Below, one piece after another: positions 3,573 to 10,448 of a DNA stretch of 11,086 nucleotides. The position numbers and the translations under genes were made by a program. This stretch comes from a virus: UHGV virus genome UHGV-0145753; one strand, 5' to 3'. The notes beneath the pieces were generated by a model. That model ran no database searches and was not told where the DNA came from. It was given only the letters and a program-made list of their open reading frames with translations. Each line of letters starts with the position of its first letter. Position 1 is the stretch's first letter.

Positions 3573-3875
3573 ATGGCTTATGGAATACAGACCTGGGATG
3601 CTTCGGGAAACCCCAACAACTACGGAATCAAGCCCGTTTCCGTTGTTGGACGTATACAACTTGCCGCCGGACAAAACTCCGGCAGCTGGTCTTTCACTGT
3701 ACCCTCAGGAATGAAGGTCGGTTTTGCGCTCTCACTTGATGAAGGAGGTAACAGCGTAGGGAGGAGCATTGTCGCGTCAGGGAACACAATAACCGTAACC
3801 GCAGCCTCTTCTGTGGGCCTGGGTAATTACCCGGCCTCTAAATGTGAGGTGGTCGTTTTCATGGAGAAAGCATAA
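3573..3875 (+). CDS. Hypothetical phage protein (tail-region accessory), 100 aa
   Basis: ORF starts 2 nt after the J stop with a G-rich Shine-Dalgarno-like stretch upstream; its stop overlaps the next start (TAATG). Shares a WDASG motif with the next ORF. Confidence 0.6.
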   Translation: MAYGIQTWDASGNPNNYGIKPVSVVGRIQLAAGQNSGSWSFTVPSGMKVGFALSLDEGGNSVGRSIVASGNTITVTAASSVGLGNYPASKCEVVVFMEKA

Positions 3876-4549
3876 TGGCCGAATTTGGCGCGATGATATT
3901 AATGGATAACGGGAATCCCTTTGTAACGCCACAATCAACGCCTTTCTGTCTTTACGGGAAGTATACCTTCAATTCATCCGCGAATGGCAGTTCTCAGCAG
4001 GTTGCTCAAAATATCGCTTTAAACGCTGATTACCCAGTGATGGTTTTTATCAAAACCACCAATACAGCACAGCCCACTCCGGTTATGTCTTACAGGAACG
4101 GCGGTAATGTGTATGTTGCTGGTGTTAATCCCTACAACCAAAGTTTCACTTTAACGGCGTACGTTTTTGCCATATTCCCGCAGATATTACCGAAATGGGG
4201 TTTGGCAATATGGGATGCGAGCGGAAAGCTTGTGTTAACTAATGAGTCCCGTGTGCTATCAGACCTGCAGACGGTTGGCACGCCTGGTGCAAACGGCGGG
4301 ATAAATATTGACCAGACGCTGAGCGGGTCATGGGCCGTTGCACCTGCTCAGTTGGGTCAGACCATCATTGTGAATAATTCAACCCGGCCTCCGACTATCT
4401 ACACGATAAATGCTTATTCTTCATGCAGGTTTGACGGGGCCAATACGAGGATAAACGCAGGGGGGACCTCCACTGGGGCAGGTTCACCTGGAGGGGGAAC
4501 GAATACTGGCATTTCATTAACCGCCATAAATACAGCGGCCTATGATTGA
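3875..4549 (+). CDS. Hypothetical phage protein, 224 aa, apparently two copies of the domain seen in the preceding ORF plus a Gly/Thr/Asn-rich C-terminus
   Basis: Start is translationally coupled to the upstream stop (TAATG). Contains AIWDASGKLVL mid-protein and a second weaker DNGNP-type motif near the N-terminus, resembling QTWDASGNP in the 100-aa ORF. Confidence 0.62.
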   Translation: MAEFGAMILMDNGNPFVTPQSTPFCLYGKYTFNSSANGSSQQVAQNIALNADYPVMVFIKTTNTAQPTPVMSYRNGGNVYVAGVNPYNQSFTLTAYVFAIFPQILPKWGLAIWDASGKLVLTNESRVLSDLQTVGTPGANGGINIDQTLSGSWAVAPAQLGQTIIVNNSTRPPTIYTINAYSSCRFDGANTRINAGGTSTGAGSPGGGTNTGISLTAINTAAYD

Positions 4550-4571
4550 TTGATCGTTTTTAGCGATCAAT
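4548..4571. promoter_or_regulatory. AT-rich palindrome ATTGATCG-N7-CGATCAAT with clustered GATC sites; candidate operator or promoter region for the downstream lipoprotein moron
   Basis: Perfect 8-bp inverted repeat (4549-4556 and 4564-4571) immediately after the stop of the 224-aa ORF. A third TTGATC copy lies at 4582-4587, giving three GATC sites within about 35 bp. No T-tract follows, so it is not a typical terminator. Confidence 0.3.
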
Positions 4572-4660
4572 AACATAATATTGATCTATCCAATCAATTA
4601 TACCCACCAGAATTGTATTGTTATCGTCTAAGATACTGAATTCCTCTGGATACTATCAAA

Positions 4661-6498: not shown

Positions 6499-6913
6499 GC
6501 CATTCAATATCTGGAGCACTGGAAATATCGACCATTTCCAGTGCATCCAGATAATCCAGCCACAAATTATATTGTGCCAGTTCCTCACCTTTCAGACGAC
6601 CGATAGCTGCTTTACCAGGCCATTGCTTACCGTTCATGTATTCGTTGGCATGGTCAATTCTCGACTTTTTCTCTGAGTCAGCCGCAGCAAGTTGTTCTTT
6701 ATGCGTAGGTGACGGAAGATCTACCCAGCAAGGCAACCCATCATCACCAATGCCACGCATTTTACCCTCAGGAGCGTTTCCCATGAAAACCAGTGCATCT
6801 TCAGCATCTATATTGATGCCGTCTGACGGCCATGTGCCAGCAGTTAAATAATCATATTTCAGTGCCACAAGATAAAAAGCATTTTCCGTCGGGCTGAATA
6901 CATAGTCGACCAT
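6470..6913 (-). CDS. tfa: Alternative tail fiber assembly protein (Tfa-alt), in the silent orientation
   Basis: Conserved Tfa-type C-terminus (LWLDYLDALEMVDISSAPDIEWPTPP). Preferred start is the ATG at 6913, which overlaps the Sv-alt stop in a TAATG junction mirroring the + strand arrangement and has a GGGAG upstream; the ORF-track start at 6931 would add 6 aa. Its 3' end overlaps the + strand tfa convergently by 29 bp. Confidence 0.72.
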   Translation of the reverse strand: MVDYVFSPTENAFYLVALKYDYLTAGTWPSDGINIDAEDALVFMGNAPEGKMRGIGDDGLPCWVDLPSPTHKEQLAAADSEKKSRIDHANEYMNGKQWPGKAAIGRLKGEELAQYNLWLDYLDALEMVDISSAPDIEWPTPPVVQAR

Positions 6914-7268
6914 TAATATCCCACTCCCCATACTGCCACTGTTGAATTAGATTTCGTGTATGCGCAAGCGGCTTTGAATTTGACCCGGTCAACAATCGCT
7001 GCGCTAACAAAAGGGGCTCCATTAGTCGCGTAGATCACAGAATTGACCAGCGAAGGATTGATGGAAAGGCAAGCATTAGGAAAGGCAACCGGCCATGAGC
7101 CATCAACAACGACCATATTACCGTCGGTAGATTGCGGCACTGATAGCGTCTTCCACTGAAGCAATGCTGTTCGTTGTACTCCACCAATTAATACTGGAAT
7201 AGTGATGTTACCTGCACTGCTGGCTAATGCTGTCGCAGCAGGCATTTTCGCTGCTTCTCCCAAACCAA
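6913..7268 (-). CDS. Alternative tail-fibre variable C-terminal cassette (Sv-alt), promoterless and startless; it would be fused in-frame to the constant part after inversion
   Basis: The minus-strand reading frame is open from the right inversion site to a stop at 6913-6915. Across the site it encodes V-G-L-G-E, matching L-G-L-G-E at the left site in the same codon phase, so recombination at the central dinucleotide keeps the frame. The ORF-track start at 7287 is a TTG beyond the crossover. Confidence 0.62.
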
Positions 7269-7280
7269 CCTTTTTTATAA
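7255..7280. repeat. Right recombination site of the invertible segment (gix/hix/pix-like), crossover dinucleotide AA at 7267-7268
   Basis: TTCTCCCAAACC-AA-CCTTTTTTATAA. Its left half and centre are the exact reverse complement of the left site's right half and centre. It lies about 60 bp upstream of the invertase start. Confidence 0.7.
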
Positions 7281-7339
7281 CCATCAAAAATCTGGTGATG
7301 CTTCGCCGTTTCTCCTGTTTTCATAACAGGAGAAATCCC

Positions 7340-7888
7340 ATGATTTACGGTTATGCCCGAGTATCAACAAACCACCAGGACACTGAATTGCAACTAACGG
7401 CGCTCAAGTCAGCGGGTTGTGAGAAAATTTTTGAAGAGCATGCCAGCGGGAGGAAATCGAATCGGCCGGTTCTAAAACGGCTGATCGCCACTATGCAGCC
7501 GGGGGATGAACTGGTGGTCTGGAAGCTGGACAGGATAGGCCGCAACGTTCTGCATGCGCTGTTGATGTTCCAGCAGTTACAGGAAAAGGGTATCAACTTC
7601 CGCAGTATTACCGATGGCGTGGATCTCAAAACAGCCAGCGGCCGCTATAACTTTCGTAACATCCTTTCCGCAGCACAATATGAATCTGATCTTAATAGCG
7701 AACGTACCTTAGCAGGGCTGGCCGTAGCCAGGGCAAAAGGGCGAGTTGGTGGTCGCAGGCCTAAGTTCACGGATGAGCAATGGCGGGAAATGGGGGAGCG
7801 GATGGCAACCGGTGAATCACGACAAAGCGTATCAAAAACGTATGGAGTAGGGCTCTCAACTCTGTATAAAAAGTTTCCAGCTAGCTGA
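7340..7888 (+). CDS. Site-specific DNA invertase, serine recombinase of the Hin/Gin/Cin/Pin family
   Basis: AGGAGA Shine-Dalgarno 7 nt upstream of ATG 7340. N-terminus MIYGYARVSTNHQDTELQ has the catalytic Ser at position 9 (Gin: MLIGYVRVSTNDQNTDLQ) and the C-terminal helix-turn-helix ends GLSTLYKKFPAS (Gin: ALSTLYKKHPAK). About 182 aa; the upstream in-frame extension in the ORF track (from 7202) overlaps the inversion site and is not used. Confidence 0.93.
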   Translation: MIYGYARVSTNHQDTELQLTALKSAGCEKIFEEHASGRKSNRPVLKRLIATMQPGDELVVWKLDRIGRNVLHALLMFQQLQEKGINFRSITDGVDLKTASGRYNFRNILSAAQYESDLNSERTLAGLAVARAKGRVGGRRPKFTDEQWREMGERMATGESRQSVSKTYGVGLSTLYKKFPAS

Positions 7889-7909
7889 TAACGGGAAAGA
7901 AACAGAGAA

Positions 7910-7950
7910 GGGCACAAATATTGTGTACTTTAATGTGCCCTTTAATTTAT
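7910..7950 (+). terminator. Putative terminator hairpin after the invertase gene
   Basis: Perfect 7-bp stem GGGCACA (7910-7916) and TGTGCCC (7934-7940) followed by a T-rich tract (tttaatttatt). The loop is long (17 nt) and contains a TGTGTAC motif, so this could instead be a protein-binding site. Confidence 0.4.
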
Positions 7951-8113
7951 TGATTGGTGGTTGAATTGTCCGTAACTTTTTGATTTAAGTGCAAATTTCT
8001 AATAAATTAGAACACTTTCTTAAATTGTCATTTGGCATATTACGAACAATTCCGCGTAAAAACGTTCTGTTACGCTAAACCCTTATCCAGCAGGCTTTCA
8101 AGGATGTAAACCA

Positions 8114-8136
8114 TAACACTCTGCGAACTAGTGTTA
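8114..8136. repeat. Inverted repeat TAACACT-N9-AGTGTTA; candidate att core-type site pair or operator
   Basis: Perfect 7-bp arms with a 9-bp spacer, inside the AT-rich intergenic region between invertase and integrase and about 30 bp upstream of the TGTGTAC repeats. Confidence 0.3.
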
Positions 8137-8164
8137 CATTGCGTGTAGCTTTGAGTGGGCAACT

Positions 8165-8207
8165 TTGTGTACACTTTTGTGTACCCAAAAACAAAAATGT
8201 GTACCCA
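8165..8207 (+). repeat. Three direct copies of a TGTGTAC(C) motif just upstream of the integrase start; candidate integrase arm-type or regulator binding sites
   Basis: TGTGTAC at 8166-8172 (within the palindrome GTGTACAC), 8178-8184 and 8198-8204. The last two are TGTGTACCCA 10-mers spaced 20 bp apart. A fourth TGTGTAC lies at 7922-7928 in the hairpin loop after the invertase. Confidence 0.45.
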
Positions 8208-8211
8208 TTCA

Positions 8212-9405
8212 ATGATCACCGACACAAAGCTCAGGAAGGCGCTCGGCAAGAAAAGAGATGATATCGAGATTATTTCTGATTCGCACGGGCTCAACGCCAG
8301 AATCAGCCAGGCCGGAAAAATATCATTTTTCTATCGGTATCGCTGGGCCGGTAAAGCGGTAAAACTCAATGTTGGTGATTATCCTGCAATGAGTATCACC
8401 CAGGCAAGAGAGCGTCGCCAACAATTCAGAAACTGGTTAACTGAGGGACTGGATCCGCGAGAGCAGGTGAAGCTGGATAAGCAGACCCGACAGGAAGCGA
8501 TGTCCGTTGCCGAAGCGTTCAATTACTGGATTGAAAGGCACTGTATCGCTAACGGGCTAGTTAAAGTCGATTACTATCGCCAGGTGTTTGAGAAACATAT
8601 CGCCGAACCGATGAAGAATGTCAAAGTCGATAACACAGCGAAAATGCACTGGATCAACGTCTTCGATTCTATAGAAAGCAGGGTGATGGCTCATTACATG
8701 CTTTCGCTGTGCAAACGGGCGTTTAGGTTCTGCGTTAACAGAAGTGTGATCGCCTCAAACCCACTCGAGGGATTACTGCCATCTGATGTCGGGCAAAAGC
8801 CTAAAAAGAGAACTCGCAGGATGGACGATGACGATCTGCGCAAAATCTATCAGTGGTTGAAAAGCCATATGTCGATAGAGTCCGTTTTCCTGGTGAAATT
8901 TATTATGCTTACCGGATGCCGTACGGCTGAGATTCGACTTAGTGAGAGATCATGGTTTCGATTGGATGATAATGAGTGGGTCGTGCCTGCGGGCAGTTAT
9001 AAAACTCGGGTACATATTAGAAGGGGGCTCTCAGACGCCGCCGTTAACTTGGTCAGAAATCACCTCAAGAAAATAAACACCAATCACCTGGTGACTTCAC
9101 AACGTAAAATTGATGGCGGGATCAAAGATTCGCCCGTTCATTCACCTGTGGCATCCAATTACGCCCGTTCTATTTGGAATGGAACAGGTATGGCAGAGTG
9201 GTCGCTTCATGATATGAGGCGGACGATAGCCACAAATCTCTCTGAGTTAGGTTGCCCGCCGCACGTAATTGAAAAGCTACTTGGTCATCAGATGGTCGGT
9301 GTAATGGCTCACTACAATCTGCACGACTACATCGATGACCAAAAACACTGGCTCCACGTTTGGCAGAGCCATCTTGAAAGTATCATTGGTGAGCCATTCA
9401 GTTAA
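8212..9405 (+). CDS. int: Tyrosine site-specific integrase, P4-type (N-terminal arm-binding domain plus C-terminal catalytic domain)
   Basis: N-terminus [17 protein letters not shown]...[23 protein letters not shown]...[18 protein letters not shown] fits the P4-integrase arm-binding pattern. The C-terminus has the catalytic signature ([19 protein letters not shown]...AHY). Start chosen at ATG 8212; the ORF track begins at an upstream GTG (8155) that would put the repeats inside the coding sequence. No strong Shine-Dalgarno at either. Confidence 0.9.
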
Positions 9406-9598
9406 TTGGCTGTTTCACACCTTCCCACTCTTTGACTGACTCCGACTTCCAGCGGTTTGGGTTACCAGGAAAATCAGGAGCAGGGAACGGCTTCGCAAAA
9501 CCCCGCGGCATAGTTTCTGTGCTTTGCCATGACCAAAGGGTTTTACGTGAGATTTTGTATCGACTGGTCAGGTCTGACGTCAGCAAAATATCATCCAT
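9398..9598 (-). CDS. AlpA/Xis-like small helix-turn-helix protein (putative excisionase or recombination directionality factor, or transcriptional regulator)
   Basis: 66 aa with GGAG Shine-Dalgarno 9 nt upstream. The pattern ...[11 protein letters not shown]...FPAP..........W....VKEW resembles AlpA (..RATIYDWL..ATFPKK......W.EAEIDEWL). It is convergent with int and overlaps its 3' end by 8 bp. Confidence 0.55.
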
Positions 9599-9609
9599 CG
9601 TTTTTCTCC

Positions 9610-9630
9610 AATGGCCCGTACTGGGCCATT
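9610..9630. promoter_or_regulatory. Perfect palindrome AATGGCCC-N5-GGGCCATT just upstream of the AlpA-like gene; candidate operator or mRNA hairpin
   Basis: 8-bp arms with a 5-nt spacer in the 45-bp gap between the hypothetical gene ending at 9644 and the AlpA-like start at 9598. It is not followed by a U-run on the coding (minus) strand. Confidence 0.35.
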
Positions 9631-9643
9631 TATAAAAGTAATA

Positions 9644-9886
9644 TCAACTCACCTGACCCGGCAGCGCTCGCAATCTGCGCATGCCTGTCATCGCCGTGGC
9701 CACGTAACTCGCCTTGCGGTTCACTACCTCCACCCAGACCTTCACACCTTCAACTCTCACCGTGTACGTTTCCTTCATCTTGCTGCGTCCGTAGTCGCCG
9801 TAGCGTTCGTGATGAGTGGCCAGCGCGATGTCGCATGCCTGACGCGCTATCGGGGATTGCTGATTGCCGCGGTTAATCAGTTTCAT
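9644..9886 (-). CDS. Hypothetical protein, 80 aa
   Basis: The ATG at 9886 overlaps the stop of the upstream gene (ATGA), indicating translational coupling within a minus-strand operon. No recognisable motifs. Confidence 0.45.
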   Translation of the reverse strand: MKLINRGNQQSPIARQACDIALATHHERYGDYGRSKMKETYTVRVEGVKVWVEVVNRKASYVATAMTGMRRLRALPGQVS

Positions 9887-10077
9887 GCTTCACCGCCATC
9901 TGGGTTGGATGATTGACGGAAAATTGCTCGGGACGGCGACCAATCGCAATATGTATCAGTTTCGGTATGCCCGAAAATTGTCTTACAGCGGCGGATATGG
10001 GCGCAGTCGCCGCAAGTCTTACCCTTCGGGAGTTTCATTTTGTCGGGGTCTGCCGGGTTATAATTCAGCTCAGTCAT
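9883..10077 (-). CDS. Hypothetical small Cys-containing protein, 65 aa (possible zinc-binding)
   Basis: Preferred start is the ATG at 10077, with GGAGG 8 nt upstream, overlapping the stop of the upstream gene (ATGACTGA); the ORF track extends it to 10221 in a region that overlaps that gene. Contains C-x2-C-x5-C-x12-C (CGDCAHIRRC...YC). Confidence 0.45.
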   Translation of the reverse strand: MTELNYNPADPDKMKLPKGKTCGDCAHIRRCKTIFGHTETDTYCDWSPSRAIFRQSSNPDGGEA

Positions 10078-10414: not shown

Positions 10415-10421
10415 CTCGTTA

Positions 10422-10443
10422 CCGGGAGGGCGAACCCTCCCGC
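10422..10443. promoter_or_regulatory. GC-rich hairpin CGGGAGGG-cgaa-CCCTCCCG in a 34-bp intergenic gap
   Basis: Perfect 8-bp stem with a 4-nt loop between the partial upstream ORF (stop 10449-10451) and the start at 10414. No U-run on either strand, so it is not a classical terminator. Confidence 0.35.
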
Positions 10444-10448
10444 CTCCC

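Follow-up and report, generated by a model that had tools for sequence, protein, structure and literature searches.

Is the perfect palindrome that lies immediately upstream of a phage excisionase gene a protein-binding operator in DNA or a hairpin in RNA, and, if it acts in RNA, on which of the two strands? The question is raised by an 11,086-nucleotide stretch of viral DNA (UHGV-0145753, hereafter the window), in which the sequence AATGGCCC-GTACT-GGGCCATT occupies positions 9610-9630 and can form a stem-loop on either strand. The two arms (9610-9617 and 9623-9630) are 8 nt each, 100% complementary and separated by a 5-nt spacer, and the original prediction of a perfect 8-5-8 palindrome proved exact in both sequence and coordinates. 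On the minus strand, which is the gene strand, the stop codon TGA of a DUF4060 gene (9646-9644) is followed by an AU-rich 13-nt spacer (9643-9631), the hairpin (9630-9610), the Shine-Dalgarno sequence GGAG of xis (9609-9606), 7 nt, and the xis ATG (9598). The hairpin fills the 45-nt gap between the two genes and leaves no gap between itself and the Shine-Dalgarno sequence: it ends at 9610 and GGAG begins at 9609, directly 5' of that site as had been predicted. The phi80 equivalent of this ribosome-binding site is annotated in X04051. Read in the int-sense direction (plus strand), the spacer at 9631-9643 is TATAAAAGTAATA and, together with the ATT of the stem, it yields the tail GGGCCA-TTTAT. 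The hairpin, with a predicted energy of about -13.8 kcal/mol in the xis-sense and about -13.3 kcal/mol in the int-sense, dominates the local predicted fold on both strands and leaves the Shine-Dalgarno sequence and the AUG of xis unpaired. No covariance model of Rfam 15 matched the region 9500-9700, even at E <= 10.

The genetic setting of the palindrome is that of phage phi80. The gene that follows it on the minus strand, xis (9398-9598), encodes a 66-aa excisionase (PHROG 1553, E 1e-32) and is the last gene of the leftward early operon, in which the DUF4060 gene (9644-9886, minus strand) is its upstream neighbour. A P4-type integrase gene with Arm-DNA-bind_3 and Phage_integrase domains (8155-9405, plus strand) converges with xis and overlaps it by 8 nt. 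The attP core ACACTTTCTTAAATTGT (8012-8028, plus strand) is identical to that of phi80 and has phage DNA on its left (pin and tail fibre), which places the window in the excised (virion) configuration; the copy of this core in E. coli KL53 (L001) has kch beside it. The features by which a phi80-type int-xis module is recognised, namely Xis homology, a convergent overlapping P4-type integrase and the phi80 attP core, are all present. Positions 7858-9026 are base-for-base identical to phi80 and just two mismatches occur further up to 9278, a stretch that takes in attP, the pI region and most of int, while from 9279 rightward the two sequences differ every few bases, and the 3' end of int, xis and everything to the right are 64-92% identical. 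Given the base identity of attP and int, the 81% identical Xis, the common gene layout and the divergence from 9279, the window is, on its sequence, a mosaic phi80-like phage in attP configuration. Its attP and most of its int are those of phi80, and the 3' end of int, xis and the hairpin come from another lineage; the joint near 9279 points to a recent recombination inside the integrase gene. A terminator-like hairpin on the minus strand, TGGCTCTGCCAAACGTGGAGCCA followed by GTGTTTTTGG (9349-9371), lies 27 nt past the xis stop codon inside the 3' end of int and corresponds to the "putative leftward transcription terminator" annotated in phi80; together with the palindrome it would bracket a zone of about 280 bp of convergent, overlapping transcription. 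Further to the left, an 11-5-11 inverted repeat, TTTCTCCTGTT/AACAGGAGAAA at 7309-7335, corresponds to the "IR3" of phi80 and stands just 5' of the start of the pin invertase gene; translation of pin, listed as an ORF at 7202-7888 with a GTG start, probably begins further in, at the ATG near 7340.

The downstream gene had been described as AlpA-like, and this description was not upheld: the 66-aa protein gave no match to Pfam Phage_AlpA (PF05930), even at E <= 10, and belongs to the PHROG 1553 excisionases. Its identity is 81% with phi80 Xis and 100% with prophage copies in Citrobacter braakii and C. murliniae. The label "AlpA family" is given to Xis homologues by some sources, and PMC3064807 places phi80 Xis in that family. 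A megablast search of 9300-10000 against the phage collection found nothing, and phi80 was reached by protein search. The gene is easily missed in annotation: PGAP left it unannotated in E. coli prophages (L001, 3105-3344; L002, 3102-3338) and in Klebsiella phage ST16-OXA48phi5.1 (L094, 2477-2692), and several "proteins" of 100-122 aa in databases consist of xis plus a spurious N-terminal stretch translated through the hairpin region. Within xis itself, a perfect 10-bp palindrome, CTGACGTCAG at 9575-9584, lies in the codons for the peptide repeat LTSDLTS.

Perfect hairpins as such are not rare in this DNA. In dinucleotide shuffles of the window, with perfect 8-nt arms and loops of 3-8 nt, 1.04 ± 1.2 hairpins were expected per window against seven observed; for a GC-rich hairpin with 8-nt arms the expectation was 0.45 per window, and the probability of at least one was 0.32. 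Since shuffling yields about one such structure per 11 kb, the palindrome by itself is not significant. The two GC-rich palindromes of the window, however, occupy the two gaps between cistrons of the leftward operon, and the 45-nt gap makes up about 0.2% of the window; what goes beyond chance is the position of the palindrome and its recurrence at the same place in relatives. The other GC-rich palindrome, CGGGAGGG-TTCG-CCCTCCCG (10423-10442, minus strand), is a second 8-bp hairpin located between the recT stop codon and the next gene, within a 34-nt gap (10415-10448), and has no T-run on either strand. Its existence contradicts the earlier statement that the gap in front of xis is the only sizeable one in the operon. 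The loop of the recT hairpin is TTCG in the window and in a Klebsiella phage (L094), and its exact inversion, CGAA, in two E. coli prophages (L001, L003). Other perfect short hairpins were noticed as well, two of them overlapping at 4549-4586, 3' of the ORF 3875-4549, and an 11-7-11 repeat at 6516-6544 in the invertible segment, where the tail-fibre-assembly genes converge; all of them probably serve as terminators or as invertase sites.

To follow the palindrome through its relatives, the 60 nt upstream of xis were compared in more than 130 related loci from genomes, IMG/VR and metagenomes. Two IMG/VR scans aimed at distant xis contexts returned near-identical loci only, and a metagenome scan contributed two new variants. 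In Citrobacter, Kluyvera and E. coli of the KL53 type, the stem AATGGCCC/GGGCCATT is kept with seven different loop sequences on its 8 bp (AGTAC, AGTTC, AATTC, GGCAT, GGAAT, GAACT and GAAAA). The loop GAACT, found in L133, is the exact reverse complement of the KL53-type AGTTC, that is, a loop flipped between perfect arms. Two loci (L009 and L037) carry the stem GGCCCC-N5/N4-GGGGCC, and L038 and the phi80 lineage have only GCCC-N4-GGGC, with a predicted energy of about -6 to -7 kcal/mol; the phi80 lineage is the most abundant one, with more than 70 loci, and its stem has decayed to 4 bp (GCCC-GAAC-GGGC). A wholly unrelated stem, GCCGCACG-CCAT-CGTGCGGC, is found in L032 and L033, 20 nt from the Shine-Dalgarno sequence. 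In nine of the ten stem types the hairpin stands 0-5 nt from that sequence. Where the DUF4060 gene is joined to a lambda-type xis/int module, homology ends at the DUF4060 stop codon, and hence the hairpin belongs to the xis side of the joint.

More distant modules lack the structure. Phages of the Kp4864-1 type, with Xis about 90% identical, have no hairpin, and their upstream gene stops 14 nt before the xis ATG. In Pantoea, Serratia, Pectobacterium, Cedecea and Klebsiella (Xis 45-77% identical), int is likewise convergent and overlapping, and 0-10 nt separate xis from the upstream gene. In all of these, the Kp4864-1 type included, we found neither a hairpin nor an int-sense terminator candidate within 700 nt. 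A Stx2a-converting phage (L093, Xis 46% identical) has a canonical xis-sense intrinsic terminator, CCGCC-TTCG-GGCGG-TTTTT, at about 2420-2445, 25 nt before the Shine-Dalgarno sequence; because this terminator precedes the Shine-Dalgarno sequence of xis, expression of xis from pL should need antitermination in that phage. The conservation check that had been proposed for the palindrome therefore gave a divided answer: the stem is kept in Citrobacter, Kluyvera and some E. coli, decayed in phi80 and absent from distant modules.

The strength of this conservation has to be read with care. Averaged over xis, third-codon divergence from the Kluyvera types is 0.30-0.40, and the stem differs from theirs at 0-1 of its 16 positions. 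To say that the stem is conserved against a synonymous background of 30-40% is nevertheless an overstatement, as conservation extends over the entire stretch from -35 to +75 and the local background amounts to a few percent. Between the window and Kluyvera L007, third positions are changed in 2 of the 25 codons at the start of xis (9524-9598, minus strand) and in 21 of the 32 codons 26-57. The DNA of codons 1-25 hardly changes between lineages even at synonymous sites, and also where the upstream genes differ; codons 26-57 are heavily substituted. Codons 1-25, the Shine-Dalgarno sequence and the stem make up one near-invariant block in which the loop alone varies, at 3-5 of its 5 positions, and the spacer 5' of the stem is saturated with substitutions. 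As judged from these alignments, the stem shares the constraint on its surroundings, from which the loop is exempt. Covariation in MAFFT alignment columns was weak (89% of cells pair, with one double change), a measure that has low power here owing to the few independent changes and to GGCCCC variants that align out of register. The argument for structure rests instead on three observations: the loop sequence is unconstrained, its length changes, and other stems are found at this position.

The original prediction had offered an operator for a dimeric regulator as one function of the palindrome, and such a site for Xis, a phage repressor or a host factor would control xis from DNA. It lies just upstream of the xis start, and in the Citrobacter/Kluyvera/KL53 class all variation is confined to the 5-bp spacer between unchanging half-sites, as would also be the case in an operator. 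Across the wider set of relatives, however, the distance between the GGCCC/GGGCC cores takes values of 4, 5, 6 and 7 bp at 77-100% identity of Xis, so that the arm spacing changes under a near-identical protein; the phi80 site is degenerate, its right arm being lost, although phi80 xis works; and L032 and L033 have the unrelated stem at the same position. No xis-strand promoter was predicted here by the scan. The window shows no enrichment of the half-site, attP lacks it, and no second copy was found in 238 kb of related phage DNA. TorI, a related recombination directionality factor, binds attL at an array of five cooperative sites and not at a single palindrome (PMC3509656), which also speaks against the operator. 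We therefore consider an operator very improbable. A separate candidate, a xis promoter with TATAAA (9634-9629) as its -10 element, was rejected: no -35 element lies at 16-18 nt, the scan did not call it, and the motif is not conserved (TGGAAA in the KL53 type). The palindrome could also be the boxB-like hairpin of an N-utilisation (nut) site, given that the loops GAAAA (L008) and GAAAT (L009) on the GCCC/GGGC stem resemble that of lambda boxB. The loop of the window is AGUAC, though, loops vary freely among closely related phages, and the hairpin stands at the distal end of the operon, away from the promoter; no match to boxA (YGCTCTTWA, up to one mismatch) was found between 7994 and 10890, and with boxA missing a nut site is effectively excluded. 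With the tests of spacing, copy number, promoter, nut site and Rfam families all negative, the element was treated as a stem-loop that forms in RNA (or transiently in DNA), and we hold it to be quite probably an RNA-level stem-loop rather than an operator.

The other function that had been put forward, an RNA hairpin that controls translation or processing, fared better in part. The free loop and the alternative stems agree with a hairpin in RNA, whereas control by sequestration does not: the hairpin leaves both the Shine-Dalgarno sequence and the AUG free, and an alternative CCAUUG/CGAUGG stem is much weaker and is not conserved in phi80. A site for RNase III was likewise dismissed, a stem of 8 bp being too short for that enzyme. 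The signal that the hairpin resembles best is a terminator, and this resemblance is found on the opposite, int-sense strand, which was missing from the original prediction because the convergent integrase gene had not been taken into account.

The two strands were compared by means of a d'Aubenton-Carafa-type terminator score with a threshold of 0, on which five textbook terminators reach +22 to +36. The energies of the hairpin are alike on the two strands and do not discriminate the functional one; its stem of 8 bp with five GC pairs and its 5-nt loop fall within the limits for a terminator stem (5-12 bp, loop of 3-8 nt), and the difference lies in the tails. In the xis-sense, where the tail is TTGGAGAAAAAC, the U-tract is inadequate and all variants score between -25 and -66. 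In the int-sense, the tail of the window hairpin is TTTATAAA, and the score is -4.0, below the threshold, compared with -25.0 in the xis-sense. The same asymmetry is more pronounced in Kluyvera L007 and L133 (int-sense +16.5 and +15.4, xis-sense -25.0 in both) and in L008 (+5.4 and -41.5). L038 and L032 score -3.4 and -3.5 in the int-sense (-65.8 and -36.7 in the xis-sense), L037 scores -17.6 (-35.3), L009 -35.6 (-44.2) and phi80 -57.1 (-65.8). A TTT follows GGGCCA in the int-sense in all 8-5-8 variants, and in the window no other int-sense terminator candidate comes near the palindrome over the 700 nt from the xis start codon into the upstream early genes, the runner-up scoring -44. A simple terminator scan called the hairpin on neither strand. 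Single-base variants give conflicting signals, as the change in L008 produces a G.U pair in the int-sense and that in L031 a G.U pair in the xis-sense. Outside the related phages, AATGGCCC-N5-GGGCCATT occurs in 33 unrelated phage contigs, many of which have it flanked by an A-run and a T-run, a classic terminator context.

From these results, a hypothesis regarding the function of the hairpin may be proposed: it would serve the int transcript as a weak one-way intrinsic terminator or 3'-end hairpin and remain silent for leftward transcription of xis. The int gene, on the plus strand with a promoter of its own beside attP, runs towards and into xis, which closes the leftward early operon on the minus strand, and the 45-nt gap between xis and the DUF4060 gene is the first non-coding DNA that the int transcript meets after its stop codon. 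There the int-sense RNA would form GGCCC-loop-GGGCC followed by AUUUAU, giving weak termination or 3'-end formation; RNA polymerase would stop or pause at the hairpin on this strand. Leftward transcription into xis would not be stopped, because in the xis-sense the hairpin is followed by the purine-rich Shine-Dalgarno sequence. The int mRNA would then carry a 3' UTR of about 225 nt, antisense to all of xis including its ribosome-binding site. This is the explanation that we favour, and only tentatively. The score of the window itself (-4) lies below the threshold, the stable stems of L009 and L037 have no T-run on either strand, the stem of phi80 has decayed to 4 bp, and the T-richness beside the stem could merely reflect the AT-rich spacer. 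Nor would an int terminator at this place be a general requirement, since the distant convergent int/xis modules have none within 700 nt.

The main rival places the hairpin in the leader of xis within the leftward polycistronic mRNA, where it would uncouple the translation of xis from that of the upstream cistron and also stabilise a segment of the message, either by capping the 5' end left once RNase E has cut in the AU-rich spacer or as a barrier to 3'-5' exonucleases; in this way it would set the yield of Xis independently of the upstream genes. The constant closeness of the hairpin to the Shine-Dalgarno sequence in nine of the ten stem types agrees with such a role, as does the fact that this sequence and the AUG are left unpaired; the stable variants without a T-run, L009 and L037, still stand at the Shine-Dalgarno sequence, the second 8-bp intercistronic hairpin of the same operon has no T-run on either strand, and at mosaic joints the hairpin usually goes with xis and not with the upstream gene. 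That leftward RNA signals do occur upstream of xis is seen from the Stx2a phage, which has its xis-sense terminator at the equivalent spot. The support is positional throughout, though, and the same closeness would be expected if a terminator were packed minimally into a short gap. Moreover, no role suggests itself in the xis-sense for the invariant A-run 5' of the stem, the stem is decayed in phi80, and most relatives have no hairpin and couple xis tightly to the upstream gene (0-14 nt gap). We regard a leader function as somewhat less likely than the int terminator. Equally directed at the xis message, though from the int-sense strand, is the notion that the hairpin terminates a short cis-antisense RNA, either a transcript of about 35 nt or the processed 3' end of the int mRNA, whose single-stranded part, CAUCGUUUUUCUCC, is the exact complement of the stretch from the Shine-Dalgarno sequence to the AUG of xis and would keep Xis off while int is on. 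A sigma-70-like site, TGGTCA-18-TATCAT (9565-9594, int-sense, inside xis), is a match to consensus only; a start near 9600, about 10 nt before the palindrome, would give an RNA of about 35 nt made up of the anti-Shine-Dalgarno stretch and the hairpin. Both hexamers are identical in the window, Kluyvera L007 and phi80 (L091) despite a third-position divergence of about 40% elsewhere in xis, codons 1-25 are almost invariant at synonymous sites, and the predicted int-sense fold leaves 15 nt unpaired between an upstream stem-loop and the palindrome. Against this, promoter matches of that quality (9/12) turn up about once per kb by chance, the conserved hexamers fall in codons for invariant residues near the start of the gene, where synonymous constraint is common, and the upstream stem-loop is no stabler than in shuffles (z = -1.0). 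The short RNA is thus improbable; the broader proposal, that some plus-strand RNA ended by the hairpin, be it the int 3' UTR or the short RNA, pairs perfectly with the ribosome-binding site and the first 25 codons of xis and silences it post-transcriptionally, is somewhat less so, and on the sequence comparisons it still seems unlikely.

The hairpin might, finally, have no function at present and be the remnant of an old, possibly bidirectional, terminator or of a module joint, with self-correction of the palindrome keeping it perfect. Its decay in the most abundant lineage, that of phi80 with more than 70 loci, and its absence from many functional relatives would fit, and the exact loop inversions (GAACT for AGTTC here, TTCG for CGAA at the second hairpin) point to palindrome dynamics at the level of DNA. 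A remnant would hardly explain, on the other hand, why the stem is unchanged where the adjacent spacer and the loop are saturated with substitutions, or why independent stems occupy the same position in other lineages, and we find it distinctly unlikely.

If the favoured explanation, a hairpin that ends int transcripts, is correct, it accounts for the 45-nt gap that is kept in a tightly packed operon. The integrase message would then be a natural antisense of the excisionase message in convergent int/xis modules, adding a post-transcriptional layer to the decision between integration and excision in phages that do not have the lambda layout. Should such an RNA also silence xis, expressing integrase would in itself guard phi80-type phages with convergent int and xis against accidental excision, and the synonymous-site conservation of xis codons 1-25 would be the footprint of the antisense RNA. 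A mere leader or stability hairpin would be routine. In either case the annotation is corrected in several respects: the element is not to be recorded as an operator, phi80-type xis genes are often missed by PGAP, and the phage is a mosaic with int and attP identical to those of phi80.

Several known systems invite comparison. P22 sar, lambda OOP and paQ are cis-antisense RNAs of lambdoid phages. The hypothetical plus-strand RNA of the window would resemble P22 sar, which is directed against ant, in being composed of a single-stranded stretch complementary to a ribosome-binding site and then a terminator hairpin; it differs from all three in that it is hypothetical and its promoter is a consensus match only. 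In lambda, the tI/sib hairpin after int ends those int transcripts that start at the int-specific promoter. There int and xis point in the same direction, and sib doubles as an RNase III site through which read-through pL transcripts are destroyed. The proposed int terminator of the window is similar in being a hairpin located past the integrase gene; it differs in that int runs towards xis, RNase III would need a much longer stem, and the U-tract is weak. The regulation is summarised in PMC2951348. The uncoupled, inverted int genes of Phi24B and KplE1/HK620 offer a parallel in their promoters: according to PMC3064807 and PMC2951348, int has its own promoter at att and is outside CI/pL control, while xis stands at the end of the pL operon. 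The passages of these two papers on the int promoter and autoregulation make no mention of an int terminator or of a hairpin in the xis leader. The Stx2a-phage relative differs from the window in having a xis-sense terminator instead.

The closest system is phi80 itself, the int-xis region of which (X04051, Leong et al. 1986; NC_021190, Rotman et al. 2012) has the same order of pin, attP, int (+), xis (-) and DUF4060. As in the window, int and xis converge and overlap, the attP core and the leftward terminator in the 3' end of int are the same, and the body of int is identical. The phi80 int-xis module has long been known, and hairpins of this kind are commonplace. The phi80 record annotates a separate promoter, pI, for int, and in the record examined the hairpin between DUF4060 and xis is unannotated. 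The two phages differ at this hairpin: in phi80 it is cut to GCCC-GAAC-GGGC, whereas the window has the intact 8 bp in front of an xis 81% identical to that of phi80.
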